From Mycobacterium leprae TN (lineage in GTDB: Bacteria; Actinomycetota; Actinomycetes; Mycobacteriales; Mycobacteriaceae), in the NCBI RefSeq assembly GCF_000195855.1, contig NC_002677.1, positions 990,001 to 1,022,000 of the forward strand: a DNA stretch of 32,000 nucleotides, written 5' to 3'. The position numbers and the translations under genes were made by a program. The notes below the pieces were generated by a model that was given only the letters and a program-made list of their open reading frames with translations, was not told where the DNA came from and made no database searches. This document shows, one piece after another, positions 1-23,838 of this stretch; the stretch's first letter is position 1; the number at the start of each line of letters is the position of its first letter.

Positions 1-386
1 GTTTCACTCATCCCGGCTACGGAGCCGTTCGCGCGGCCATTGACGCGGCGGGCGGGGCGTCGGCCGGCATCACCGGAGCACAATGGATCGACGTGGTGCG
101 CCAGCAAACCACATCGGCGCTGATCGCCGGTCTGATCAATGAGCTAGGTGTGGAGTCGATCCAGGTCGACGACGAGAAGCTGCCGCGCTATATCGATGGG
201 GTGCTGGCTCGCTTGCAGGAAGTGTGGATGGGCCGACAGATTGCCGAGGTGAAATCCAAGTTGCAGCGTATGTCGCCGATTGACCAGGGTGACGAATATC
301 ATGAACTGTTCGGCGATCTGGTCGCCATGGAAGCTTATCGACGCAGCCTGTTGGAGCAAGCCAGCGGCGACGATATGACCGCCTGA
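1..386 (+). CDS. dnaG: DNA primase DnaG, C-terminal end (5' part lies outside the window)
   Basis: The frame is open from base 3 (FTHPGYGAVRAAIDAAGGASAGITGAQWIDVVRQ...) through listed ORF 93..386 to the TGA at 384-386. The sequence reads like the mycobacterial DnaG C-terminal helper domain. The following small membrane gene and tRNA-Asn match the dnaG neighbourhood I recall from M. tuberculosis (Rv2343c, Rv2342, asnT). Confidence 0.8.
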   Translation, partial: FTHPGYGAVRAAIDAAGGASAGITGAQWIDVVRQQTTSALIAGLINELGVESIQVDDEKLPRYIDGVLARLQEVWMGRQIAEVKSKLQRMSPIDQGDEYHELFGDLVAMEAYRRSLLEQASGDDMTA

Positions 387-400
387 GGTAGTGTTGGCTT

Positions 401-673
401 TCAGTTTCCGCCGTTCTCCCGCCACTCGGCAGAGCGTTCGATAACAGTGGTCTGGTTATCGATTTCAGCCAGGGTCACAAACCCCTCGTCAGGTGAGATC
501 CGATTCGCGACCTTGCGGCGCCCCTCTGCGATCATTGACTTGGCCATGGGACTACCGGTAAGCGTGCGATATATACCTACGATCTGCTCGTAGCGGCGGC
601 GGCCAGCTTTCGCACCCAGCACGTAACCCAGTCCAAGCACGATGACATACCGGATCAAAGCGGTTCCTCCCAC
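401..673 (-). CDS. small conserved membrane protein (Rv2342-like)
   Basis: Listed ORF 401..703 (-). One hydrophobic helix (LIRYVIVLGLGYVLGA) is followed by a basic/charged tail. Candidate starts are GTG 703, GTG 673 and TTG 658, and I cannot choose between them from sequence. It is convergent with dnaG across a 14-bp gap. Confidence 0.5.
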   Translation of the reverse strand: MGGTALIRYVIVLGLGYVLGAKAGRRRYEQIVGIYRTLTGSPMAKSMIAEGRRKVANRISPDEGFVTLAEIDNQTTVIERSAEWRENGGN

Positions 674-773
674 GACGGTGCGGCTGGCTCCATCCTGCCT
701 CACGTACCGGGATGTGTGCGCGCCGAAGCCGGGCGAGCTGGGGCGGCCGCCGGCTAGTTGCCTGGCCTCGTTC

Positions 774-803
774 TTGGGTTCGGGTAGGTCAGTACGCTAG
801 AGT
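774..803 (+). promoter_or_regulatory. candidate promoter for tRNA-Asn (-35 TTGGGT at 774-779, -10 TAGAGT at 798-803)
   Basis: The hexamer TAGAGT fits the mycobacterial TANNNT -10 pattern, with a TTG-type -35 hexamer 18 nt upstream, about 40 nt ahead of the tRNA 5' end. This rests on a pattern match only. Confidence 0.3.
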
Positions 804-843
804 CATCCCGCGATCTACGCCATCGTTCACGTGGGTCGAGTGG

Positions 844-916
844 TCCCCTGTAGCTCAATTGGCAGAGCATTCGGCTGTTAACCGAACGGTTGGAGGTTCG
901 AGTCCTCCCGGGGGAG
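844..916 (+). tRNA. asnT: tRNA-Asn (anticodon GTT)
   Basis: I folded the cloverleaf by hand. The acceptor stem pairs tcccctg (844-850) with cggggga (909-915). The anticodon loop is ct-GTT-aa. The T arm is ggagg-ttcgagt-cctcc (892-908), and the discriminator is g916. No CCA is encoded. Confidence 0.95.
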
Positions 917-957
917 CTGTGGTTAGCAGCACACGTTGCATGCTGCCGGCGCGGGGT

Positions 958-2595
958 TTACCCGTAAACCGGTCGCCACGTGGCGTCGCGGATGGCTTGC
1001 GCGACATCGGTCTGGATCCTGGTCACTACACTGTCTTCGACGGCGGCTTCATAGACAGCTGCAGCGACGGCGCACAAGTTCCGAACATCCGGCAACAGCG
1101 CATTTACCAGATTCTGGGTGTGGCGTCTGCATTCCCTGGGTTAGCCGCTTGGCACCGGCCACGATGACGTCCATTCCGAGTCCGGTAAACACCGGCGTGT
1201 TGTTGGCCTGGCCAATAATGAGGTGGTGTGCTCGTCCTATTCAACGGGGAGGACCGGGCTGCCGGTAGTAACCAGCGTTCTGTCGTTCGAACAGGACAGA
1301 ATGTCTGTAGGCATGGCTTCACACATGTGAGGTCGGGTTGGGCAACGGAAAGATCATCGGGCGCTCGCAGGACACCGTCATCGTCTCGACAACTTTCCGG
1401 CTGAACGCACCGAACACCGCTGAGCAGGAGGGTGGGTGATGCTATCTTGATCGCGGCGACCAATCCGATCCGCTCTCCTCTCCTGTAGCCACACCGAGCT
1501 GTCGGTGGTCCTTCGCATCGGGTACCTGAAAATCGCATAGTTAGTCCATGTCGTTGAGTAGCAGATTCTGCTTGTCAATCGCCCTAGATCTACGACGTGG
1601 CTTGCTTGACGGTGGCGCCGTCGTCGATCCATTGCGTCGCGTATCTGATTCAGCAACATCGATCCCGGTCGTCCTGGTTCCGAAGACGACGGTCATCTGG
1701 TCGTGTATCCGGGATACCGGTGACACGGGATCGGTCGTGCATGGTGGACAACACCACGGCGTCGTGCCTGGCATGTCATACTTGAAACATGCAATAGTCG
1801 CTGCCATAGGTCTGCAGGATATTCCGCGTGTTTCCTGGCCTGAAGTCCTCTAAATGCAGGTTTACGTGCGGACAAAGCCAGTTTGCGATCTCGATGTAGC
1901 GCTTGATGAATTCGTCTTATTCGGTTCCACGCGTGGCGGTTGCCGAGATAGAACGGGGGTCTTGCGGCAGTTGCTTATTAATCAATTCCAGACATCAAGG
2001 GAGACCGCCAGACAGCGGTGCTAATCGACTCTGCCTCAGGCGGTGTAGAGCGTCGGTTTGCCCACCGTGATTTGGATGCCACCCACATCCCAATAGTCGA
2101 TACCTAGGATGGCCTTGGCGTCGGTGCAGGCGGTCGGGTCGACGTTGTTGGGCCTTAATCCGAAGGTTTGGTAAGGCCGCGGTGATGTCGTCTGGTTCTT
2201 CAATGCTCAGAAGGAGTCCCCGTTGCTCACGGTATTGATCGGAGAAGTGTTGGATGGCTTCACCTACGGTAGGTGTAGACCACCGGTATCAGCTCCGGTA
2301 AATGGTCGGCCAGCACCTTGCAGTAGAACAGTTTGTGTCGGTGATGCGACTGCGTAAGCAGGATCCGGTCAAGGTTAGTTGCGAAGCTTTGCACTTGAAT
2401 CCAGACGCGGTCGGCTTGTTGTTTCAGATTTAGCATGACCGGCGGTAGTAAACTGGTCAGTTCAAGCCGTCGCCGCTCTTTGTGAGTGAAACCCACCCCG
2501 CGGTTGAGAGTTGGTGAGGACATCGTGACCTGGGGTAGTAGCGTGAGGGCGTCGCTCACCAAAACCTCCATTGGTGTCTTGGTGTGTGTGATCAC
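958..2595 (-). pseudogene. mez: NAD(P)-malic enzyme pseudogene (multiple frameshifts and stops)
   Basis: Minus-strand fragments in different frames match malic enzyme along its length. The N-terminus is SSPTLNRGVGFTHKERRRLELT...LFYCKVLADHLPELIPVVYT (ORF 2260..2595). The middle reads GERIGLVAAIKIASPTLLL (ORF 1104..1538). The C-terminus is DVAQAIRDATWRPVYG followed by TAA, whose complement lies at 958-960. No single frame stays open. Confidence 0.75.
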
Positions 2596-2789
2596 GGTAA
2601 CGCGGATCGAGATGAACGTGTTTTGACGAGCATTTGAAACCTACTGTTCGGGTGTCACCGCCCCACGGTGCCCGGTTCCGTCGTCGGCTAGTGGGCGCAT
2701 GCCTTGCCGGGCAATCCAGTCTGGTCGAGTCAAAGGTTGGCGTTGGGACTGATTTGTGGTTCTGATGTTTGTTGTGGTGACACCTGAGT

Positions 2790-3815
2790 AGCGGTCCGAG
2801 CCCAATACTCGTAATTAGATTGTGTGGACCGATGGCGCGCTGGTTCTCGTCAATTAGCACGTGCTGCCTTACTAGCTGCAGCATTTGCGGATCGCAACGG
2901 TCGACGAGCTCATTGTGGCGATCAAAACCGGGTGGTTCGGGGAGGGGCACCAGCACTTGGGGTGGCTGGATCGTTTGAGGTGGTGTTGGCGGTTTTGGCA
3001 CACCCCGTCGATGATGAAAAGGTTGAGCTGAAGCTGGCGAGAAAGCATTTCGGCTCGGCTCGCCGCGGTGAATCTGGCGTGGGGCGTGCAACAGGCGCTG
3101 GCCAAGTTGCACGATGGGCAGCAGGCCGTGCTGCATGAGGTTCTGCGGATTTGAATGAAGATGACCAGGTCAGACCGGGCGACCGCGACTCATGCGGCGG
3201 ACTTTATCCAGCGGTTAAAGCCGGGTCCGCCAGTGCGCGTTCTGGCCCACTGCAATATTAGGTTATTGGCCACGACCGCGTTCGATAACGCACTATGGTG
3301 CGTTGCGGGTACTGTACGTGCCGGCAGATCGCGACTGTCTTGGTCGACGAGACCAGCCTGCTGCTGCAGGGGGCCTGGCTGGCCGCGTGGGAGCTGGCCG
3401 ATGCCGGCATCCCGCAACGGCTGACGATCGATTCGGCTGCGGTGTGTGCTATGGCCACCCGGGGAGGTGGACTGTGTGATCGTCGGTGCTGACTGCATCA
3501 CTGTTGACGGTTCGGTCGCCAACAAGATCGGCACCTATGGCATGGCACTCGTCGCTTATCGGCACGGCATTCCGTTCATCTTGGTCGCTCCTGAATCTAC
3601 GGGTGGTCCGGCTACCGCCACCGGGCGCGAGATCGCTGTGAAACAGCGGGCCGCAGATGAAATCACTCATTTGGGTGGGGTCGCGATCACCCCGGACGAC
3701 ACCGCTGTCGTCACCCTTGCCACTTCGATCTCGCCCCATCTGAATTGGTGACTGTGATCGTCACCGAGAATGATGTGGTGGATAACTACGCTGCAGATCG
3801 ACTTTCGGATGCGTC
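2790..3815 (+). pseudogene. mtnA: S-methyl-5-thioribose-1-phosphate isomerase pseudogene (eIF-2B alpha/beta/delta family)
   Basis: Fragments in three frames match MtnA: VWTDGALVLVN*HVLPY*..LRIATVDELIVAIKT, VRGGAPALGVAGSF, ATHAADFIQRL..VRVLAHCN..LATTAF, DETSLLLQGAWLAAWELADAGIP, VDCVIVGADCITVDGSVANKIGTYGMALVAYRHGIPFILVAPEST and VTVIVTENDVV. In-frame TAG stops are visible near 2850-2870. The ends are approximate. Confidence 0.7.
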
Positions 3816-4426
3816 GTCGCCCACCGATCTTGATCGGGCCACAGATCGCCAGCATCACCTCGGGTCTCTATGTGTGGTTAGATGCCAGACACGACCAGTA
3901 ACATTGCGGTTCGCAGCGGGCGGACCGTAGTAATCACCGGCAGTGGATTGGCCAAGGTTGAGCTTACCGCTGACGATATGGTAAAAGTGAATATTGCTGA
4001 TCCCCAAATTATTTCGGGAATACGATGCCTGTCGGCAGGGGCCATCATTCACACCGGTGTTTTCCGTGCTAGTTATACCGATGCCGTGGTGCACATCCAT
4101 CTGTCATATGTGATGGCACAGTCGCTTGACGTCCCAAGTGTGCTGCGGTTCAGTGGCTATGAGCTGATCAAACGGCTGGGGATCAGACGAACCATTGCCA
4201 TTCCGGTCTTTGGCGATCACGCCGATATTTCGCGCGTCGGCATCGATATTGAGCGTCATCTGTGAGCGGGAATCCGGATGCATCGCCGGTCTTGTTCGTA
4301 GCTGGCTACGACATCACCTCCTGGAATGCGTGCCTCGCGCAAGCTCGCGATCGCGCCAAGTGTTTGGAGGCGATGTTCGACCTGGCGACACTGATCGGAT
4401 GCCGCGAAACCGGAGCACAGGTGTGA
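3816..4426 (+). pseudogene. mtnB: methylthioribulose-1-phosphate dehydratase pseudogene (class II aldolase/adducin fold)
   Basis: ORF 3882..4265 (TSNIAVRSGRTVVITGSGLAKVELTADDMVKV...DAVVHIHLSYV...GYELIKRLG...IPVFGD) stops prematurely. The C-terminus continues in another frame (NPDASPVLFVAGYDITSWNACLAQARDRAKCLEAMFDL) to the TGA at 4424-4426. The 5' end is approximate. Confidence 0.65.
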
Positions 4427-4928
4427 TGACGTTGGTCCAGGTCATATCCGACAGTGACGTTGTCGACGTACGGTTGCGCACCGACGATGCGGAACTCATT
4501 AGCGTCGAACGAACCAAGCGTGGCGATTATTTTTGATCGCTGGCCCACGATGCCTGACCTCGATGCGGTCACCCCGATCACTGAAATCCGGGCGCACTAT
4601 CGCCACCACATTGCCGAACTGAATGCCGATAGCCGCTACCAGCACATCGACGTGGCGTGGCTGCAGCCCGTCTATAGTGAGACTTGCATTGGCTGGACAT
4701 GCCCAAGGTGGCCCGCTCGAAGTTTCTTGTCGAGCACCTGCACGCCGAGGACGAAGTGCGCTTCTTTGTCGCCGGCTGAGGCTGCTTCTATCCTGCATCT
4801 GGAACCTGAAATCGTGGCGGTAGTGTGCGACGGCGGTGACCTGTTGTTGTTGCCATCGTGTATCCGGCATTGGTGTGACATGGGCGTTCATCCCGATTTC
4901 GTGGCGATTCTGTTCTTAGAGGGAACCC
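4426..4928 (+). pseudogene. mtnD: acireductone dioxygenase (ARD) pseudogene
   Basis: The ATG at 4426 overlaps the mtnB stop by 1 nt. The frame MTLVQVISDSDVVDVRLRTDDAELISVERTKRGDYF hits a stop. Continuations in other frames are FDRWP...TEIRAHYRHHIAELNADSRYQHIDV, SKFLVEHLHAEDEVRFFVAG and HWCDMGVHPDFVAILF, the cupin C-terminal motif. The native 3' end is replaced by the left arm of the palindrome. Confidence 0.6.
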
Positions 4929-4988
4929 GGCGATTGCGGCGAGCACAGCGCGGATCAGCTGATCCGCGCTGTGCTCGCCGCAATCGCC
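4929..4988. repeat. perfect 60-bp palindrome (30 + 30 nt, no spacer)
   Basis: ggcgattgcggcgagcacagcgcggatcag (4929-4958) is the exact reverse complement of ctgatccgcgctgtgctcgccgcaatcgcc (4959-4988), checked base by base. It explains why ORFs on both strands contain the identical peptide RRAQRGSADPRCARRNR. Confidence 0.97.
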
Positions 4989-5640
4989 ATCGGGGAAACC
5001 ACCAGTCCGACCAGTTCGGTGCGCGAGTGTCTGCACGAGTGCAATTGCCCCATTTTGCGCAGTGGCTTGTCGATAACTGAAGCAGTCCTGTGGATTTGGT
5101 TATCATCGACAGTCGGCAATTGGTCGGACGACCCAGCGCTGATGCTGCGGAGGAAGTCGAATATCTCTTGCAGTCGGCTGGATTCCGATGTGAAGGACGA
5201 ACCGCTAAAGATAGCTCAAGGTCTGATCTGTGTAACTGGTTTCCGCAGTGGTGCCCTGCGCTGGGAATTCTTCTTCGACGTACCTCAGGCATTGACGATG
5301 TGGCACGACATGAGTATTGCTTTGCGCGTGTTTTCACTGGGTTCTGTTCGTAATCAACAGGCTTGGTCTGTCCACGCGCGGAGGTGAGCTGGTGTCGTTG
5401 ATCAGTGGCTGGTTCGATCTCACCAGCGCGGACGCTAAGCGCGAGGTGGCTTCCTACCACAAGATCTCCGATGCGATAGAAGTGCCAGACGCGAGAGGAT
5501 CCTCTTTCTGTTCGACTATCCCGACGAACTTGATGTGGCCGTCGCAGCGGGCTGGCTGGTGCTCGAGATGGCGTGCACAGGCCAGCCGAACTCCTCACGC
5601 CCCTATACTGTTGGCGTCATTCCTTTGCTGAAGTTGATTA
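4959..5640 (+). pseudogene. mtnC: enolase-phosphatase E1 (HAD family) pseudogene
   Basis: LIRAVLAAIAIGETTSPTSSV is a degenerate version of the HAD motif I region (xLLDIEGTTSPI). LKIAQGLICVTGFRSGALRWEFFFDVPQALTMWHDMSIALRVFSLGSVRNQQ follows. GELVSLISGWFDLTSADAKREVASYHKISDAIEV is in another frame. Frameshifts are present and the 3' end is approximate. Confidence 0.6.
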
Positions 5641-5669
5641 CCCACCTGTCGACCTGATGTCGAAAACAC

Positions 5670-6353
5670 TCAGATTGAGAAGTCCTCGCCGTGCCAAACC
5701 CCGGCTTCGGGTAGCCGGATGACGCGGTAGGTTTGCGAACCGCCGTCTTCGGCTTCCAGCTTGGCCACCCTGGTGAGCAGGGATTGCAGGCTGACGCCCA
5801 CGAAGTCGGGCAGCACAGAATCGTCCCCGTTGGCCGGGCTGTCGCTGCTGATGATTTGTCCGGGAACCCCGACGGCCACAGCGCTGGCTGGGACCTCCTT
5901 GACCACGACTGCGTTGGCGCCAATCCGGCTGTCCTCGCCGATCTTGATGGCACCGAGGACCTTGGCGCCGGCGCCGATGGTTACTCGATCCCCGATGGTT
6001 GGGTGACGTTTACCCGTTTCCCGGCCGGTGCCGCCGAGAGTGACTCCATGGAAGATGGTGACGTCATCGCCCACTTCCGCGGTTTCCCCGATCACCACGC
6101 CGGTCGCGTGATCGATGAACAGGCCGGCTCCGAGCACGGCACCGGGGTGGATGTCGACCCCAGTCAGGATGCGGGTGAGTTCGGCGAACGCCCGCGCGGC
6201 CAGTCTGGCGCGACGATTCCACAACCAGTGACTGATTCGATGACCCCAGACGGCGTGCACGCCTGGGTAGCAGCAGATGACCTCCAGCACCGTGGGCTGT
6301 GCCGGATCTCGCTGTCTTGCTGCCTGGATATCACGCCGGATTGCCGCAAACAT
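5670..6353 (-). CDS. cysE: serine O-acetyltransferase
   Basis: ORF 5670..6476 trimmed to the ATG at 6353 ([18 protein letters not shown]...), 2 nt after the cysK stop. The left-handed beta-helix hexapeptide region reads [44 protein letters not shown]. The C-terminus ends ...EDFSI, and as I recall a C-terminal Ile docks into the CysK active site in cysteine synthase complexes. Confidence 0.93.
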
Positions 6354-6355
6354 GG

Positions 6356-7288
6356 CTAGTTGGCTAAGTCCGCGAATAGCATCGTGCTTAAATATCGCTC
6401 GCCGAAATCGGGCAGCACGACGACGATCAGTTTTCCTGTATTCTCTGGCCGGCGGGCCACGTGCAGGGCGGCGCAAACGGCCGCCCCTGCGGAGATGCCG
6501 ACCAGCAGTCCCTCTTCCTTAGCCAGTCTGCGGGCTAGGTCGAGCGCTTCTTCGTTGCCGACGGTAACGATCTCGTCCACCAGGTCCAGGACCAGCACCG
6601 ACGGGACGAATCCAGCACCGATGCCCTGAATGGGGTGAGGACCCTTCTGGCCACCGGATAACACCGGCGACGCGGCGGGCTCTACGGCGACGAACTGCGT
6701 GGCGGGCCGGCGTTCTTTAATGATTCGGGCAACACCAGTGATAGTGCCTCCGGTCCCGATTCCAGAAACGAAGATGTCTACCTTGCCATCGGTGTCGCGC
6801 CACACTTCCTCGGCGGTTGTGGCGGCGTGGATGGCTGGGTTCGCTGGGTTCTCGAATTGCTGTGGTATAAAATACCTTTTATCGGACTTGGCTAATTCCT
6901 CAGCCTTGGCGATGGCTCCTGACATGCCATCGGCGCCCGGAGTCAAGATGAGTTCGGCGCCGTACGCTCGCAACAACATTCGTCGTTCGATGCTCATTGT
7001 CTCGGGCATGGTCAGCACGCAGTGGTAGCCACGTGCTGCGCATACCATAGCTAGTGCGATGCCGGTGTTCCCGCTCGTCGGCTCAAGGATGACGGTGTCC
7101 GGCTTGATCAAACCCGCTTCCTCGGCCGTGTCGATCATGGCCACGCCTATCCTGTCCTTCACGCTGTTGGCGGGATTGAAGGATTCCAGCTTGGCGACAA
7201 CGTCAGCCAGCGCACCTTCGGTAACTCGGCGTAGCCGGACCAGTGGCGTGTTACCAACTAGTTGTGTGACGTCTTCAGCAATGCTCAT
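6356..7288 (-). CDS. cysK: O-acetylserine sulfhydrylase (cysteine synthase A)
   Basis: Intact 310-aa ORF with the PLP-lysine motif NPANSVKDR, the substrate loop [10 protein letters not shown] and the glycine loop [10 protein letters not shown]. Its ATG (7288-7286) overlaps the upstream gene's TGA (7287-7285) in an ATGA arrangement. Confidence 0.96.
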
Positions 7289-8589
7289 CTATCTTCATCT
7301 CCAAGGGGCTCGGCTTCTTCAAACATCTCAGCCTCATTGGCCTCCCAGCTAATGTCGAACTCTATGGCCATTTCAGTGGGGATGGCTAGGGCAATGGGGG
7401 TTAGCCGCTGTGGTGTCCCCTCGATTGCCACTCCGGTTACTACTCGACCGGCGACGTTATGTGGCGTGGTTGCGGTCAGCGTTGTCGTCGACTTACCTGC
7501 AGTTTGGCGCAGGTAGAAGTCTGTTCCCGGTTGGATGATGTCGTCGATGACGTAGCCGTAGGAGTTGACGAGTGTGTGACCGTCGCTGGCATTGAACATC
7601 AGCGGTATTCGCACCTGGAACGGGCCCACGAGTTCGGGTTCTGCTATGGCGTTCGTGTCGACTAGATCCGGTTCGTCGGTTTGGTGCAGAACGTGGCTTG
7701 TCTCCGCAAGCAAGTAGTTGTAGAGGTATACAACTCGGTCGGCGTTGTGGTAATGGCGAGTGCCGGTTAACCAGAAGTCTACGTGATCGATTGTTGGGGA
7801 AGCGGCATCGGTGGTGGCGATCAATCGGTAGTAGCGGTAGCCGCGTCCACCTCGGCCGTGACTGCTGGCCAACAGTGTGCTACCGACGCCAAGTGTCTGT
7901 TGGTGACGGCCGATGCCGGCGGGTATAGTCCGTTGTGATCCGGAAACATCTTGCCAAACAACGCCATTGGATGATTTTTGCAGCTTCAGGTCGACCGGGG
8001 CTTCCGCGTCGACCCATGCTGAATAGCCGCCGAGCTGTGGTTCGCCGTCGAATTCGAACGTGATCACCGGTCCAGGGCAGCGATGTACCGCGACGGGTAC
8101 GTTTCGCGGTCGAGTATCAAGAGCCAAGCCGTTGGTCAGATACCAGATCGCGGCCTGGGTTGCTGCAATTGCTTCGTGTTCGCTGATATTGGCTGGCCCT
8201 AGTGGGTAGCCGGCTTCGCGTATCCGTTGGCTCAGGTCGGTGGTGGAGCGCATCGGGAAGGAGTGACGCAAAATCCAGTCCACCTCGGCTTCGCAGGAGT
8301 GCGCGCTCAGGTGCGGTAGTGCAGAGAACGTTCCCAGGCGATAACGCGACGGGTGTTGCGGTGCGATCCCGGTGAAATCGAGAGAGTAAGCGTGCAGGTT
8401 GGGGTTGAGCCTGATCAGATCGGTGCGTGCGCATGTGCCGTCGGCAAATATAATTGTGTCGACTGTGTGGGAGTAGGTACCGCTTCGGTAGCGAGTCATG
8501 TGAGTTAGTTCGGTGGTCGGTCTCACTGTGATGCGTCGGCAGGTCACCACCTGGGCTAGGGCGCGACTGGATATGGACAACACGGTCAT
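7285..8589 (-). CDS. TQXA (Cys-Gln thioester) domain-containing protein, no signal peptide or sorting motif
   Basis: Intact 434-aa ORF with GGAAG 11 nt upstream of the ATG at 8589. The block [11 protein letters not shown]...[20 protein letters not shown] (TQAAIW at 8143-8160) matches the TQXA motif region of thioester-domain adhesins. An upstream Cys sits in the expected context ([18 protein letters not shown], Cys codon 8431-8433). There is a central extra domain (..[11 protein letters not shown]..) and an acidic tail ([19 protein letters not shown]). The functional call rests on motifs only. Confidence 0.65.
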
Positions 8590-8737
8590 CGGTGGTTGAA
8601 CTTCCTAAAGGACGAGTTGGGTAGCGCGCGTCTCGATGCTGCCGGACGCGCAGGTATAGCGCTCGCGTAGGCGAGAACGTGAATGATTTGCTGAGAGCGT
8701 TAAAAGGTGTCAGGAATCAGCAACAGCGACAATAACA

Positions 8738-8829
8738 GTCCACGGTAAAGCGGCGCGTAAAGACAAAGCGTGGCTGTGTGGACTGATGCATAGGTCCACT
8801 ATAAGGTGTCGTGTGACTTTAAGCGCGCC
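8738..8829. promoter_or_regulatory. nested inverted and direct repeats in the divergent intergenic region (candidate operator)
   Basis: The inner inverted repeat is GTGGAC (8778-8783) and GTCCAC (8794-8799) with a 10-nt spacer. The outer imperfect inverted repeat is GGCGCGTAAAG (8751-8761) and CTTTAAGCGCGCC (8817-8829). The direct repeat is GTCCACGGTAAAG (8738-8750) and GTCCACTATAAGG (8794-8806). All sit in the 382-bp region between the divergent TQXA-cysK-cysE and encapsulin-desulfurase units. No regulator is assigned. Confidence 0.3.
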
Positions 8830-8971
8830 AGTTGGAGACCCCTGCAGTTTAAATCATTTTGCTCATACTTAGACTTACTTGCACTTCAGTGCGAGCCCGA
8901 TTTTTAGTGGGTGCTCACCGGGAGGGTGTTCAAAGCCAGCTGCTGTATTCGATCAACATGGAAGGACCAGG

Positions 8972-9895
8972 ATGACGTCGGCTCAGAATGAGTCTCAGGC
9001 ACTCGGCGATCTTGCTGCCGGGCAACTAGCCAACGCGACAAAAACTGTACCACAGCTCTCAACTATTACGCCGCGTTGGTTGCTGCATTTGCTCAACTGG
9101 GTTCCGGTGGAAGCGGGTGTCTATCGGGTGAACCGCGTGGTCAACCCCGAGCGGGTTGCAGTCAAAGCCGAGGCTGGCGCCGGCACCGAGGCACCGCTGC
9201 CGGAGACCTTCGTCGACTACGAGACCAGTCCGCGGGAATACACGCTGCGCACGATTTCGACGTTGCTAGATATTCACACACGGGTGTCGGATCTATACTC
9301 CAGCCCACATGACCAGATTACCCAACAACTGCGGCTGACCATCGAGACCATCAAGGAAAGGCAGGAGTGCGAGCTGGTCAACAGTCCCGAGTTCGGGTTG
9401 CTCGCGCAGGTGACTCCGGAGCAGACGATCCGGACTTTTGCCGGTGCTCCCACGCCCGACGACCTTGACGCACTGATTACCAAGGTCTGGAAGATGCCGA
9501 GCTTTTTCCTGACGCATCCGCAGGGCATCGCCGCGTTCGGCCGCGAGGCCACCTACCGTGGTGTGCCGCCCGTAGTCGTGAGCCTGTTCGGCGCACAGTT
9601 CATCACCTGGCGTGGCATTCCGCTGATCCCGTCGGACAAAGTCCCGGTGCAGGACGGTGAAACCAAGTTCATCTTGGTGCGCACTGGTGAGGAACGTCAG
9701 GGCGTGGTTGGGCTGTTCCAACCGGGCTTGGTCGGTGAGCAGGCGCCGGGACTGTCGGTGCGGTTCACTGGCATCAACCAGGCAGCGATCGCGACCTACT
9801 TGGTCACCCTCTACACGTCCTTGGCTGTCCTCACTGACGATGCGTTGGCTGTGCTTGACAACGTAGCTGTGGATCAGTTCCATGAGTACAAGTGA
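8972..9895 (+). CDS. mmpI: Family 2A encapsulin shell protein (M. leprae 35-kDa major membrane protein I)
   Basis: ORF 8879..9895 trimmed to the ATG at 8972, which follows the SD-like GGAAGGA (8960-8966), giving 307 aa. The strings QLANATKTVPQLSTITPRWLLHLLNWVPVEAGVYRVNRV, PETFVDYETSPREY, DLYSSPHDQITQQLRLTIE and LAVLTDDALAVLDNV are the hallmark blocks I recall from Family 2A encapsulins (Synechococcus SrpI type). A desulfurase gene overlaps its 3' end. Confidence 0.9.
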   Translation: MTSAQNESQALGDLAAGQLANATKTVPQLSTITPRWLLHLLNWVPVEAGVYRVNRVVNPERVAVKAEAGAGTEAPLPETFVDYETSPREYTLRTISTLLDIHTRVSDLYSSPHDQITQQLRLTIETIKERQECELVNSPEFGLLAQVTPEQTIRTFAGAPTPDDLDALITKVWKMPSFFLTHPQGIAAFGREATYRGVPPVVVSLFGAQFITWRGIPLIPSDKVPVQDGETKFILVRTGEERQGVVGLFQPGLVGEQAPGLSVRFTGINQAAIATYLVTLYTSLAVLTDDALAVLDNVAVDQFHEYK

Positions 9896-11786
9896 GTACC
9901 GGCCGGTAGACGCCGAAGACGAGTTGTTCGTCAGTGCTGCCCAACTTGCCGTGCGGGCCACGCAGCTGTATGCGGCCAGCTTTCGGCCCGGGTTTGACAG
10001 CCCGCCGCAGCTGGTGCCTGTTGCCCTGCGCGGCAGCGCGCCAGACACGACGACTGTGGCGTCGGCTGGCGAGTTAGCCGTGGGCACCACTGATCCGTGC
10101 CCGGCACCAGTTGCGCAGATCGGTGTCGCTGACGTCTATGTCCCAGCGCCGACGTCACCCGAGCCCGAAGGATTACCACAGGTGGCACCAGTCTTCTCAC
10201 GCGGCAATGTCCCCGACACCACGGCGGTGCCGGCGGCGGCCGGGACAACCGTGGGTGTGGCCGATCCCTATCTGCCGCCCGGGGTAGGTCACCTGAGTGG
10301 GTTCGCAGTGCCCAGCCACGGTATCGTGCCCACCGTTCCTGGCGTGTTGGCCGGCGGGCCGCCGACTGCTCCGGTGGCCCCGCGCAATTCGGCGCCTGTT
10401 TTGCGGCCCGAGTGGCCGTACCATGTGCCGTCGGTGAGTGATTTGGACTGGTTTGATGCGGTGCCAGCGGGTGTGCCTGGAGGCGACGAACACAATTACA
10501 ATTTTCTGATCGCAGCCCCCCAAGTGCCTCGGTTGGCCGATGAACACGAGATGGTCGACGTCTTCGATATTCAGGCCGTGCGGGCGGACTTTCCGATTCT
10601 GCAGGAGACCGTCAACGGCAAGCCGTTGATCTGGTTCGACAATGCCGCGACCACCCAGAAGCCGCAGGTAGTCATCGACCGACTGTCTTACTTCTATGCC
10701 CACGAAAACTCCAACATTCACCGCGCGGCGCATGAACTGGCGGCTCGGGCCACCGATGCTTACGAGGAAGCCCGGGAAACAGCACGGCGTTTTATCGGTG
10801 CAGCCAAGGCCCAAGAGATCATCTTCGTGCGCGGTACTACTGAAGCGATTAACCTGGTTGCCTATGCGTGGGGGGGTAAGCATTTGCAACCTGGTGACGA
10901 GGTAGTCATCACTCATCTCGAACATCACGCTAATATCGTTCCTTGGCAATTGCTTTCGTCACAAACTGGGGCAATCCTGAAAGTCGCACCGGTTGACGAT
11001 GCGGGCAACTTGTTAATGTCGGAATTCGAGGATCTGCTGGGTCCCAGAACGAAGTTGGTGGCTGCGACTCAGGTGTCGAACGCATTAGGCACGGTTACAC
11101 AAGGTGAGAAGATCGTTGAGTTGGGTCATCGCTACGGTGCTCGGGTGCTGATCGACGGCGCACAGTCGATTCCGCATCTGCCGATCAATGTCTCCGAGCT
11201 CGGCGCCGATTTCTTCGTGTTTTCCGGACATAAGATTTACGGCCCCACCGGGATCGGTGTGCTTTACGGGTGCGAGGATGTGCTGACGGAGATGCCACCG
11301 TGGCAGGGCGGTGGCAACATGATCGTCGATGTGACGCTGGAACGGTCGCTATATCAGGGGCCGCCCAACAAGTTTGAGGCCGGCACCGGGAATATCGCTG
11401 ACGCCGTCGGACTGGGGGAGGCGCTGCGTTACGTCGAGCGGGTGGGCGTCCAGCGTATTGCGTCCCATGAGCAAGCACTGCTCGACTATGCGACACCTCG
11501 GCTGGCCGACATACCCGGTGTTCGCCTGGTGGGCACCGCAACGGAGAAAGCCAGCGTGCTGTCGTTCGTGCTGGCTGGACACGAGCCGCTAGAGGTGGGC
11601 AAGGCACTCAATGCCGAAGGGATTGCGGTGCGTGCTGGTCATCATTGCGCACAGCCAGTTCTGCGGCGCCTTGGGTTGGAGGCCACGGTTCGCCCATCGT
11701 TCGCCTTTTACAACACATACGAAGAGATCGACGTCTTCATCAATGTGGTGCGTCGGATCGCAGAGGGCGGTACCAATATCGGCTGA
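9882..11786 (+). CDS. SufS/CsdA-type cysteine desulfurase with ~225-aa disordered N-terminal cargo-loading extension
   Basis: Intact 634-aa ORF whose ATG at 9882 overlaps the encapsulin stop by 14 nt. Residues ~226-634 read VRADFPIL..WFDNAATTQKP..THLEHHANIVPW..FSGHKIYGPTGIGVLYG (PLP Lys451)..RAGHHCAQP (catalytic Cys589). Residues 1-225 are Pro/Ala/Val/Gly/Thr-rich with no enzyme-like sequence. Confidence 0.92.
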   Translation: MSTSEYRPVDAEDELFVSAAQLAVRATQLYAASFRPGFDSPPQLVPVALRGSAPDTTTVASAGELAVGTTDPCPAPVAQIGVADVYVPAPTSPEPEGLPQVAPVFSRGNVPDTTAVPAAAGTTVGVADPYLPPGVGHLSGFAVPSHGIVPTVPGVLAGGPPTAPVAPRNSAPVLRPEWPYHVPSVSDLDWFDAVPAGVPGGDEHNYNFLIAAPQVPRLADEHEMVDVFDIQAVRADFPILQETVNGKPLIWFDNAATTQKPQVVIDRLSYFYAHENSNIHRAAHELAARATDAYEEARETARRFIGAAKAQEIIFVRGTTEAINLVAYAWGGKHLQPGDEVVITHLEHHANIVPWQLLSSQTGAILKVAPVDDAGNLLMSEFEDLLGPRTKLVAATQVSNALGTVTQGEKIVELGHRYGARVLIDGAQSIPHLPINVSELGADFFVFSGHKIYGPTGIGVLYGCEDVLTEMPPWQGGGNMIVDVTLERSLYQGPPNKFEAGTGNIADAVGLGEALRYVERVGVQRIASHEQALLDYATPRLADIPGVRLVGTATEKASVLSFVLAGHEPLEVGKALNAEGIAVRAGHHCAQPVLRRLGLEATVRPSFAFYNTYEEIDVFINVVRRIAEGGTNIG

Positions 11787-11910: not shown

Positions 11911-12398
11911 ATGATGTTGCTGGCTTTGTGCCCAGGTCTGGCTAGCACCGGATGTGGATGGAAGCCGCAGACACCATCACCACCGCCTCTCGACACATGC
12001 AAAGTCTCCGACGGATCGACGACCCAGACAGTGCAGCAGGCCATCATCTTAGTTCCGATCCTGACAGCTGGATCGATCTGGGTCGAAATGCCCGGGGACA
12101 TACCCAGAATTGCTATTTGTAGTGGGTGCAGATCATCCCCTACCATTGCTACCGAATCGACTCCCCAGCAGTTGTTGTTTTTCGACCACAACACCCGGCT
12201 GGGTGCACCGACCCGGAACCCGAAGGCCTATAACCCTATATAACTGTGCTGCCTCCTGGCGAGGAGGCGGTGACGGTTCAGTATCGATGGCGGGTCGGCA
12301 ATGAGCAGCCGTGCTGCCCTAACGGTATTGGCACAGTGCGATTCCAGATTGGATCCGACGGCAAGCTGAAAACTCTCGGCACGATCCCGCACCAGTAG
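11911..12398 (+). pseudogene. lppP: LppP-like lipoprotein gene, apparently frameshifted
   Basis: It has a signal/lipobox-like N-terminus (MMLLALCPGLASTGCG). Frame 1 ends at TAA 12241-12243. The C-terminal part (VLPPGEEAVTVQYRWRVGNEQPCCPNGIGTVRFQIGSDGKLKTLGTIPHQ, stop at 12396-12398) is in another frame that opens only after 12233. Its position next to narK matches lppP-narK1 adjacency in M. tuberculosis as I recall it. Confidence 0.5.
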
Positions 12399-12558
12399 TC
12401 TTGGTGCGCTGATTTTTTTGGCTCAACGGTTCGCCCAGATAGGCAGAGTTTTCAGGAGTTCTACAGGAGGTTCAGGCTCTCCGGGATGCGTTTCGCGCCC
12501 CGAAGCCTGTCACCCTTGGGCGTCCGTGGCTTTAGGCGCAGCTGGGTTAAGGAGGGTG

Positions 12559-14112
12559 ATGGATCAGCTGGTGTTGCTGCAAGCCGAGGAGTCGCTGTAC
12601 GGCCCCGGTCGCAGATCGAAAACTGTACCGATTGACCATCGGCACAGTCTAAAGTCGAGCTTTTTCCGGCTGCGTTTGAGGAGAGCGTGTCGCATCTCGC
12701 ATTGGGACCCCGAGGATCAAGCGGCTTGGGAGGCTGGCAACAAAACCATCGCCCGGCTCAATCTGCTCTGGTCGGTCCTGACCGTCCACCTGGGGTATTC
12801 GGTGTGGACGCTCTGGCCGGTGATGGAGCTGTTCATGCCCAAGGACGTATATGGCTTTTCCGCGGGTGACAAGTTTCTGCTCGCTACCACCGCAACCTTG
12901 GTTGGGGCGTGCCTGCGGGTGCCGTACTCGTTGGCCACCGCACTTTTCGGTGGCCGCAACTGGGCGATTTTCTCGGTGATGGTGCTGTTGATCCCCACTA
13001 TTGCCACCATGGTGCTGTTGGCTCATCCAGGCTTGCCGCTTTGGCCTTATCTGGCGTGCGCGGCACTGACCGGCTTGGGCGGCGGTAATTTCGCGGCGTC
13101 GATGACTAACGCCAACGCCTTCTACCCGCATCGGCTCAAGGGTGCGGCATTCGGGCTCGCTGGTGGGGCCGGCAACCTTGGGGTGTCGGTGATCCAGGTG
13201 GTCGGGATGCTGGTCATCGCCAGCGTCGGTGACCGAAAGCCTTACATTGTGTGTGGACTTTATGTGGTGCTGTTGATAATCGCCGGGATCGGAGCAATGT
13301 TGTTCATGAACGACATTGAGCATCACCGTATCGGGGTGAACACCATCCGGCCAGTACTGTTCGTCGTGGTTTCCACGCGTGATAGCTGGGTTCTCGCGCT
13401 GCTCTACCTGGCGAGTTTCGGTTCGTTCATCGGTTTTTCATTCGCATTCGGCCAGGTGCTGGAAACCAACTTCGTCGCCGGCGGACAAAGTACGGCTCAG
13501 GCCGCGTTGCACGCCGCTGAGCTTGCATTCATCGGACCGACGTTGGCCGCGGTAGCCCGGTTTTGGGGTGGCCGACTGGCCGACCGACTTGGAGGGAGTC
13601 GCGTCACCCTGGTGGTCTTCGGTGCCATGGTTTTTGCCGCCGGGTTGCTGGGTGTACTGGGCATAATTGAGGGCTCACGCGTGTGCCCGATCAGGGGTGT
13701 CATGATGGCCAGCTACTTCGCTGGATTCATCACTCTGTTCATCTTGTCTGGGTTGGGCAATGGATCGGTGTACAAGATGATCCCGACAATTTTCGAGGCC
13801 TGCAGCCATTCCCTGGGAATCAACGACGACGAGTGCCGCGACTGGTCACGAGTGATTTCCGGGGTCGTCATTGGCTTTGTCGCGGAGGTCGGCGCACTCG
13901 GCGGTGTTGGGATCGACCTGGCGTTGCGAGAGTCCTACCTCAACACTGGCGGGGTTACCGCAGCGTTTTGGATATTCATGTTGTGCTATGCCGCGGCCGG
14001 TGTCCTGACCTGGAAGATGTACGTGTGTCGACCATTGCCAGGCAACTTGCACGACGAAGCGGCTAATGCGTTTGCGGCCAGCGTCGGAGCCAGCAGAACT
14101 CACCGGGGCTGA
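12559..14112 (+). CDS. narK: NarK-type nitrate/nitrite MFS transporter
   Basis: ORF 12418..14112 trimmed to the ATG at 12559, preceded by AAGGAGG (12549-12555), giving 517 aa. It is multi-helical and hydrophobic. Both nitrate-signature motifs are present: LGGGNFAASMTN..GLAGGAGNLGVS and GLGNGSVYKMIP. Confidence 0.88.
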   Translation: MDQLVLLQAEESLYGPGRRSKTVPIDHRHSLKSSFFRLRLRRACRISHWDPEDQAAWEAGNKTIARLNLLWSVLTVHLGYSVWTLWPVMELFMPKDVYGFSAGDKFLLATTATLVGACLRVPYSLATALFGGRNWAIFSVMVLLIPTIATMVLLAHPGLPLWPYLACAALTGLGGGNFAASMTNANAFYPHRLKGAAFGLAGGAGNLGVSVIQVVGMLVIASVGDRKPYIVCGLYVVLLIIAGIGAMLFMNDIEHHRIGVNTIRPVLFVVVSTRDSWVLALLYLASFGSFIGFSFAFGQVLETNFVAGGQSTAQAALHAAELAFIGPTLAAVARFWGGRLADRLGGSRVTLVVFGAMVFAAGLLGVLGIIEGSRVCPIRGVMMASYFAGFITLFILSGLGNGSVYKMIPTIFEACSHSLGINDDECRDWSRVISGVVIGFVAEVGALGGVGIDLALRESYLNTGGVTAAFWIFMLCYAAAGVLTWKMYVCRPLPGNLHDEAANAFAASVGASRTHRG

Positions 14113-23530: not shown

Positions 23531-23838
23531 GGATCGGTTCCTATTTATGTAGCGTTAGTGACCCGTGTAGAGTGAGGTAGTTCTGGGCCGGTTCGGTCCA
23601 AGCAAGTGGTGTGGTTCTCGCAAATCCGCGTGTTCCGCTCCAGTGTGTCACTGTGTAAGTCCGAGGGCGCTGCTCTGTCTGTATCGGGCGGTCTTCGGTA
23701 GTGGCTGTCGGGCTCTCCGGATCTGGAGCAGGTCGGCCGCTTCGATCGATGGCCGTAGTCGTATTCAGACTGTGCTCTCCGGGATTGCGTGCGTGGCGCC
23801 GAAACAGATTAATAACGAGAGAGGCTGTGCGGACGGTT

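Follow-up and report, generated by a model that had tools for sequence, protein, structure and literature searches.

The window analyzed here is a 32,000-nt stretch of the Mycobacterium leprae TN chromosome (NC_002677.1, positions 990,001 to 1,022,000), in which five genes, ML0838–ML0842, surround and include an encapsulin nanocompartment. We conclude, with a probability of about 0.88, that these genes represent the known Family 2A desulfurase encapsulin in its M. leprae form, accompanied by a divergent, probably attenuated operon that begins with a TQXA-domain gene and carries cysK-cysE as an add-on. The shell gene mmpI (ML0841; 8972–9895, plus strand) encodes the 307-residue Family 2A shell protein, known as MMP-I (for major membrane protein I), a 35-kDa antigen, and the cargo gene ML0842 (9882–11786, plus strand), which overlaps it by 14 nt, encodes a 634-residue cysteine desulfurase. 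The minus strand holds the TQXA gene ML0840 (7285–8589; 434 residues), cysK (ML0839; 6356–7288; O-acetylserine sulfhydrylase, 310 residues) and cysE (ML0838; 5670–6353; serine O-acetyltransferase, 227 residues). The TQXA and cysK genes overlap by 4 nt, cysK being described as translationally coupled to ML0840, and the ATG that gives the 227-residue count for cysE lies 2 nt past the cysK stop. Both the intactness of the five genes and the 382-bp divergent gap between TQXA and shell (8590–8971), as given in the initial annotation of this DNA, were borne out by the list of open reading frames (ORFs) and by the curated family models, whose cut-offs all five exceeded (for instance TIGR01139 with 465.7 bits against 351 for cysK, and TIGR01172 with 246.8 bits against 211 for cysE). 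For all five proteins, a look-up of exact sequences returned the M. leprae entries ML0838–ML0842.

The assignment of the shell protein was examined against family models and solved structures. ML0841 contains the blocks QLANATKTVPQL, ITPRWL, VEAGVYRVN and LAVLTDDALAVLDNV, and it matched the SrpI-like family PF19307 (E = 1.8e-97) and the Family 2A model NF041162 (encap_f2a; 495.6 bits against a cut-off of 380), in which its residues 11–306 covered profile positions 1–295 of 295. The cyclic nucleotide monophosphate (cNMP)-binding insertion domain, a mark that separates 2A from 2B, is missing from the 307 residues, where Pfam found the SrpI-like domain only, and the 2B model aligned only through its profile positions 210–449. 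A PDB search gave 87% ungapped identity (E = 1.8e-182) to the solved chains 9ksl and 8wol, named 'Major membrane protein I/1', and a further relationship to solved SrpI (6x8m). The closest solved relatives, for which the search states no source species, are 8wol, 8won and 9ksl together with the desulfurase 8kg1. The Family 2A identity proposed in the initial annotation is hence supported by two family models and by structures, and so is the identity with the M. leprae MMP-I, since ML0841 exactly matches UniProt ENCP2_MYCLE ('Type 2A encapsulin shell protein'). The accompanying remark that M. tuberculosis has no counterpart agrees with the literature, according to which neither M. tuberculosis nor M. 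bovis has MMP-I (PMC4102069). A terminator-like hairpin and T run (CTTGCACTTCAGTGCGAG CCCGATTTTT) is present at 8878–8895 on the strand of the shell gene (plus), 77 nt 5' of its ATG.

A dedicated cargo gene adjoins the shell gene. Its conservation was evaluated in 80 Mycobacterium loci collected around shell homologues, the closest at 94% and M. leprae itself not being in the set, of which 76 were informative for TQXA, 75 for cysK/cysE and 75 for the cargo; the cargo gene was present in all 75 with sufficient downstream DNA. ML0842 matched NF041166, the model of Family 2A cargo desulfurases (824.2 bits against a cut-off of 800), and the PDB desulfurase 8kg1 (E = 6e-246). Its Aminotran_5 domain spans residues 250–619, so that the catalytic domain begins near residue 225–250 and the N-terminus is non-enzymatic; the PLP (pyridoxal phosphate)-binding Lys451 (SGHK) and the catalytic Cys589 (GHHC) are both present. 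Residues 1 to about 225 (9882–10556, plus strand) form the putative disordered loading domain, composed of 52% Pro/Ala/Val/Gly with short conserved motifs, and 10557–11786 (plus strand) encodes the SufS-type catalytic domain. These results agree with the earlier description of a 634-residue SufS-type desulfurase with a 225-residue non-enzymatic N-terminus. The start of this protein differs among public records, from 411 residues in the original genome annotation to 611 in Swiss-Prot and 634 in RefSeq (WP_172591903, 'family 2A encapsulin nanocompartment cargo protein cysteine desulfurase'). The 634-residue start at 9882 is supported by 69 orthologues, in which conservation extends back to residue 1, and the 411-residue call drops the entire loading domain.

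Similar two-gene systems have been studied elsewhere, which enabled us to outline how the M. leprae compartment is likely to operate. Mmp1 and Enc-CD of M. smegmatis (MSMEG_4537-4538) form an orthologous two-gene operon in which shell and cargo genes likewise overlap, and Enc-CD combines a long disordered N-terminal loading domain with a SufS-type catalytic domain, as the M. leprae cargo is predicted to do. Tang et al. (2024) reported for this system a T=1 assembly, loading via the disordered N-terminus, and sulfur puncta that need the active-site Cys (PMC11659603). A poly-cysteine small ORF (sORF) and a TQXA gene are also found there (Ms4536A-Ms4536), with locus numbers adjoining MSMEG_4537-4538. 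The M. smegmatis locus differs in its shorter cargo N-terminal domain (155 residues against about 225) and in an sORF that precedes the single gene Ms4536/TQXA, whereas the M. leprae operon continues into cysK-cysE; in addition, the M. leprae locus lies in a decayed genome and the organism is not testable in culture. SrpI/CyD of Synechococcus elongatus (PDB 6x8m; PMC8049743) is the founding Family 2A structure, of the same Pfam family and with the same principle of an N-terminal disordered loading domain. Unlike the M. leprae locus, it is plasmid-borne, cyanobacterial and induced by sulfur starvation, and the neighbors listed for it include no TQXA gene but consist of serine acetyltransferase, rhodanese and transporters. 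Acinetobacter baumannii 118362 likewise has a Family 2A shell and cargo for which storage of elemental sulfur was demonstrated (Benisch 2024, PMC10836720; possibly PDB 8t6r), arranged as a co-directional four-gene operon of rhodanese, serine acetyltransferase, shell and cargo. M. leprae, in comparison, has no rhodanese gene, and its cysK and cysE lie on the divergent strand behind TQXA and a poly-cysteine attenuator.

By analogy with these orthologues, ML0841 would self-assemble into a T=1 shell of approximately 20 nm with the HK97 fold, a closed icosahedral form to which both the 87% ungapped identity to 9ksl/8wol and the T=1 shell of M. smegmatis Mmp1 point. ML0842 would be loaded into it via the disordered N-terminal domain of about 225 residues, as was demonstrated for the M. 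smegmatis orthologue. Once encapsulated, it would turn cysteine into alanine, and the released sulfur would accumulate in the lumen as a store. We infer this mechanism for M. leprae because of the 87% shell identity and the conserved catalytic residues. That M. leprae MMP-I is a sulfur-storing encapsulin shell is already recognized, and on this central point the literature gains nothing new. In this respect the initial annotation was overstated: UniProt and RefSeq already name shell and cargo as Family 2A encapsulin components, the family is published, and the co-occurrence of 2A shells with serine acetyltransferase and PALP genes has been tabulated. A connection of SrpI with the antigen of M. 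leprae and M. avium had already been drawn by Nichols (2021; PMC8049743), and Benisch (2024), who showed elemental sulfur storage, listed M. leprae among the carriers (PMC10836720). Nichols, Benisch and Tang all name M. leprae in connection with Family 2A, while Andreas and Giessen (2021) cover this family but refer to M. leprae solely in the context of Family 1 peroxidase operons.

The constant neighbor of the shell was found to be the TQXA gene. It adjoins the shell gene in 76 of the 76 informative slow-grower loci, in four of four fast growers, and in two distant actinobacterial contigs; the M. tuberculosis complex lacks both this gene and the shell. The two contigs, represented by four loci in two near-identical pairs, were the distant ones whose TQXA proteins could be looked up. 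One is a metagenome contig of 76% guanine-plus-cytosine (GC) content, in which a TQXA homologue about 34% identical to ML0840 lies directly 5' of the shell gene and is followed, co-directionally, by the shell and a full cargo gene (L088, 8001–12310). On the other, of 77% GC (L090, 354–3241), a TQXA homologue of about 34% identity is again directly 5' of the shell and co-directional, and the contig breaks off within the gene that follows and overlaps the shell gene. That partial gene is without a Pfam record, and a short upstream ORF on the same contig ends in RRCCRR. From these gene orders, the conserved mycobacterial core is read as a poly-cysteine sORF and TQXA divergent to shell and cargo, and the constant partner of the shell is TQXA, not cysK/cysE. 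This strict co-location escaped the initial annotation and is the sole part of the locus that looks unexplored.

ML0840 itself is only partly similar to thioester-domain proteins. It matched TIGR03934 (TQXA_dom) with 54.6 bits, and PF08341 over residues 98–156 only, which correspond to the central part of the thioester-domain (TED) model. Gln145 of the TQXA motif is invariant in 26 orthologues and was also found in 11 distant homologues, while neither set has an invariant Cys column; at the position of M. leprae Cys53 the orthologues have R, S, W or T, and the distant homologues S, Q, V or D. As no Cys is conserved, a Cys-Gln thioester cannot form, and a defining feature of thioester domains is thus lacking. 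Sequence inspection gave no signal peptide and no LPXTG, the N-termini being Arg/Pro/Ala-rich without a hydrophobic core. ML0840 thus shares with the Gram-positive TED/TQXA adhesins (PF08341) the motif with its invariant Gln and the match to the central TED model, and differs from them in the missing conserved Cys, signal peptide and LPXTG. The family is a small one; 146 representatives among 1.84 billion reached E ≤ 1e-10. A search of its profile against PDB sequences gave no match at E ≤ 1, and hence no solved relative by sequence. AlphaFold2 with the 26 orthologues produced a poor model (mean predicted local distance difference test score 53.6, predicted template modeling score 0.46), for which Foldseek returned nothing from the PDB at E ≤ 0.001. 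ML0840 is a known T-cell antigen, for which no homologue is on record in M. tuberculosis, BCG, M. marinum or M. ulcerans (PMC3040138).

These observations may point to a role for TQXA in the compartment. We consider the odds about even that the TQXA protein (ML0840/MSMEG_4536 family) is a third, cysteine-attenuated component of the actinobacterial Family 2A desulfurase encapsulins, possibly an adaptor or a factor that remobilizes the stored sulfur. Such a role is supported because TQXA is co-located with the shell in slow and fast growers and in distant contigs and is absent with it from the M. tuberculosis complex, and because it was kept intact in M. lepromatosis while the downstream cysK/cysE decayed. 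The M. smegmatis study did not identify the sulfur acceptor of Enc-CD (PMC11659603), and our literature search returned no paper linking thioester domains with encapsulins. TQXA was also considered as a second cargo, which was unsupported: BLASTP against the desulfurase loading domain gave chance matches only (best E = 1.2).

The divergent intergenic region carries a further conserved element, a putative attenuator of the TQXA operon. Alignment of its minus strand revealed a TANNNT -10 hexamer, a 6–7-nt spacer, an ATG, and an sORF with a terminal Cys run, all of which are kept in 78 related loci. In M. leprae, TATAGT (8798–8803, minus strand), read directly in the sequence, lies 6 nt 5' of the ATG of the sORF (8717–8791, minus strand), whose predicted peptide is MHQSTQPRFVFTRRFTVDCYCRCC. 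This layout of hexamer, spacer and start at 8803–8789 corresponds to the signature of a leaderless transcript, defined as RUG located 6–8 nt past TANNNT, the start being predicted from sequence. The peptide ends in DCYCRCC, with four Cys in its last six codons and two of them consecutive, which places it among sORFs defined by at least two consecutive Cys codons; the orthologous sORFs end in VDCCCCCC. The terminal run itself reads CCCCCC in most relatives, CCCRCC in M. lepromatosis and CYCRCC in M. leprae. In the leader that separates the sORF stop from the start of TQXA (8590–8716, minus strand), a post-stop UUCCUGA (8710–8716) is complementary to the Shine-Dalgarno (SD) region of TQXA, UUAGGAAG (8601–8608), and was paired with it in the minimum-free-energy folds of three species. 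For the proposed 12-bp SD/anti-SD helix, 89% of cells were paired across 23 sequences, compared with 28–55% when the helix was slid. A compensatory change from UUCCU/AGGAA to UUUCU/AGAAA (pair UUUUCU/AGAAAG) was also found in the fast growers and in two divergent lineages of the comparison set, L019 and L073. In the TQXA/shell intergenic region, Rfam at its gathering threshold found nothing. A sigma-70 consensus scan gave no promoter in 8500–9050; no match is expected, because mycobacterial promoters are mostly without a -35 element.

Such elements are known, and the attenuator was missed by the initial annotation although the element itself had been described. Seliverstov et al. (2005) reported a cysteine leader peptide and had at that time counted ML0840 as part of the cys operon of M. 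leprae (PMC1262725). The class of poly-cysteine leaderless sORFs, including Ms4536A and Rv2334A, was defined by Canestrari et al. (bioRxiv 10.1101/834739), and cysteine-responsive downstream expression was shown there for Ms5788A in M. smegmatis, not for Ms4536A. The M. leprae element resembles this class in its leaderless ATG 6 nt past TANNNT, its C-terminal Cys run and its predicted tail/SD pairing, and differs in the interrupted run CYCRCC. By this likeness, the most probable function of the M. leprae sORF is that of a cysteine-sensing translational attenuator of the TQXA-cysK-cysE operon. When Cys-tRNA is scarce, ribosomes would stall on the Cys codons of the sORF. A stalled ribosome, following the published model of Ms5788A, would keep the sORF tail from masking the SD of the next gene, and the operon would then yield the TQXA protein, which has no conserved cysteine, together with the cysK-cysE pair. 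The order sORF-TQXA-cysK-cysE of M. leprae and M. avium joins the Ms4536A-TQXA and Rv2334A-cysK1-cysE contexts, which Canestrari et al. called non-homologous.

The above reading was weighed against other explanations of the same locus. MMP-I owes its name to its first isolation from membrane fractions, and under the historical annotation it would be a true membrane protein and antigen with a role unrelated to compartments. We regard this as extremely improbable in view of the 87% ungapped identity to the solved 'Major membrane protein I' chains, of which 8wol was deposited with 60 chains, the T=1 shell resolved for M. smegmatis Mmp1, the end-to-end match to the SrpI family and the 2A equivalog model, and the overlapping cargo gene with its loading domain. 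Another explanation is that shell and cargo are relics still awaiting decay, with no selected function, as might be supposed from the many pseudogenes of M. leprae and the decay of both flanks. Selection was evaluated by pairwise ratios of nonsynonymous to synonymous substitution rates (dN/dS), which against 12 orthologues ranged over 0.04–0.10 for the shell, 0.11–0.14 for the cargo, 0.17–0.24 for TQXA, 0.06–0.12 for cysK and 0.12–0.20 for cysE. Between M. leprae and M. lepromatosis the shell gave 0.11 and the catalytic domain of the cargo 0.07, without indels in either, and the values were looser for the cargo loading domain (0.42) and TQXA (0.47), the latter two speaking for the relic explanation. 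The low values for shell and catalytic domain, the full-length genes kept in both leprosy bacilli though the adjoining cysK/cysE decayed in one, and the abundance of MMP-I as an immunodominant major antigen in patients speak against a relic, which we hold to be very improbable. The retention under selection that had been claimed for the locus is thereby upheld for shell and cargo as purifying selection. Several points nevertheless weigh against the encapsulin-and-attenuator reading as a whole. Assembly, loading and sulfur storage in M. leprae are transferred from the M. smegmatis, A. baumannii and S. elongatus orthologues, and the dN/dS values, being pairwise, do not isolate the M. leprae branch. 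The interrupted CYCRCC run may lower the cysteine sensitivity of the leader. In addition, RNAalifold did not recover the SD/anti-SD helix unaided, so that it was subsequently tested as a named structure, and the helix exhibited no covariation among the slow growers because their sequences are too conserved.

The remaining alternative concerns cysK and cysE. The initial annotation had linked them to the compartment, and in its fullest form this would make the five genes one selected unit, in which cysK/cysE feed cysteine to the encapsulated desulfurase in an obligate synthesis-consumption cycle that buffers sulfur. Part of the evidence is favorable: cysK, with cysE where the contig allows, follows TQXA in 73 of the 75 informative slow-grower loci, and all five M. 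leprae genes are intact with dN/dS below 0.25. Genes of these types are also enriched near 2A shell genes generally, since the supplementary table of Nichols gives Hexapep/serine acetyltransferase genes in 56% and PALP/cysK-like genes in 22.5% of 2A neighborhoods (PMC8049743), and serine O-acetyltransferase and rhodanese are the usual accessory genes of 2A systems (Andreas and Giessen 2021; Benisch 2024, PMC10836720). The link is broken, however, in several lineages. The divergent L019 and L073 have sORF, TQXA and shell without cysK/cysE, L019 with a full cargo gene and L073 on a contig that ends inside the cargo gene and holds only its start. All four fast growers, M. mageritense, M. setense, M. 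aubagnense and M. aquaticum, carry TQXA, shell and cargo without adjacent cysK/cysE, and so do the two high-GC actinobacterial contigs for TQXA beside the shell. M. tuberculosis has a sORF-cysK1-cysE unit without any compartment (bioRxiv 10.1101/834739; PMC4102069). The clearest case is M. lepromatosis, in which the shell (95%), the full-length cargo (92%) and TQXA (88%) are intact, whereas cysK and cysE have both become pseudogenes through seven 1-bp indels along with in-frame stops (L081, 11302–12918 of our extract from CP155806.1, corresponding to window positions 5670–7288). The same lesions were found in the complete chromosome and in an independent Logan read-set assembly (L082). A full-text literature search, which did not cover the genome paper (Singh 2015), returned nothing on cysK/cysE in this species. 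As shell and cargo were kept while cysK/cysE decayed, the compartment can be maintained without local cysteine synthesis. The adjacency proposed as a co-occurrence check is accordingly conserved among slow growers and not universal in 2A-encapsulin loci, and the claimed genetic link to the compartment holds in nearly all slow-grower loci and fails in L019 and L073, in the fast growers, in the distant contigs and, through decay, in M. lepromatosis. The single selected unit is thus weakened and does not hold up; we judge it unlikely. Gene content and order indicate instead that a single slow-grower lineage added cysK-cysE to the TQXA operon and that the pair is dispensable for retention of the compartment, and a cycle linking the pair to the compartment would be at most a lineage-specific convenience.

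Other genes were noted around the related loci. In M. haemophilum, the gene directly 3' of the cargo gene encodes a 921-residue fusion protein, in which metallo-beta-lactamase, rhodanese and sulfite-oxidase-like molybdopterin domains are combined (L083, 3562–6327). M. leprae is without this fusion gene, having approximately 130 bp from the cargo stop to the first lppP-homologous sequence (11914). The metallo-beta-lactamase and rhodanese half adjoins cysE in 12 other loci. The fusion was considered as a conserved component of the locus and rejected, because it is full-length in M. haemophilum only. Among the four fast growers, three have a small gene for an ANTAR-domain protein (an RNA-binding antiterminator) after the cargo on the same strand (L084, 2601–2852; L085, 3564–3839; L087, 3558–3833). 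A sulfate-type ATP-binding cassette (ABC) transporter was located approximately 2.5 kb beyond TQXA in fast growers (L084, 11671–15272; L086, 10717–14741; L087, 10734–14762), preceded by its own 30-residue ORF ending in CCR.

The flanks of the five genes in M. leprae are decayed, largely as the initial annotation had described them. On the left, a pseudogene of mez (malic enzyme; 964–2571, minus strand) was traced in pieces by aligning intact copies from one related locus (L001) and from M. haemophilum (L083) in several frames at 38–71% identity, the sole piece scoring in Pfam being a 40-residue malic N-terminal fragment. Remnants of methionine-salvage genes follow at 3425–5077 (plus strand), where Pfam on stop-to-stop segments found fragments of mtnA (IF-2B; 3425–3748) and mtnB (Aldolase_II; 3882–4262) and a weak match to mtnD/ARD (4430–5077); mtnC, which had also been listed, was not detected in this flank by the same search. 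The longest open frame in 1–5670 is at most 242 residues. On the right, lppP (Lipoprotein_21; 11914–12395, plus strand) is a pseudogene split over two frames, residues 1–106 of the M. haemophilum LppP aligning at 11914–12231 and residues 56–158 at 12069–12395 in another frame. An intact ORF for a 564-residue major facilitator superfamily (MFS) transporter is located at 12418–14112 (plus strand) and its product is 89% identical to that of M. haemophilum; in M. lepromatosis the gene seems to be in fragments, with 65% over residues 95–514 and split gene calls. Rfam additionally identified a tRNA gene (844–916, plus strand) amid the decayed left-flank genes and an Actino-pnp cis-regulatory RNA (23687–23757, plus strand).

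The locus has some implications for the biology of the leprosy bacilli and of Family 2A encapsulins. The M. leprae gene order reconciles two poly-cysteine attenuator contexts formerly termed non-homologous, and if TQXA were the third component, the order sORF-TQXA-cysK-cysE would be ancestral and the sORF-cysK1-cysE unit of M. tuberculosis derived from it. TQXA is a consistent and unstudied neighbor of the compartment, for which MSMEG_4536 offers a concrete candidate gene. The two leprosy bacilli differ in that cysK/cysE were kept in M. leprae and both lost in M. lepromatosis, a natural experiment that hints at a differing cysteine dependence on the host.

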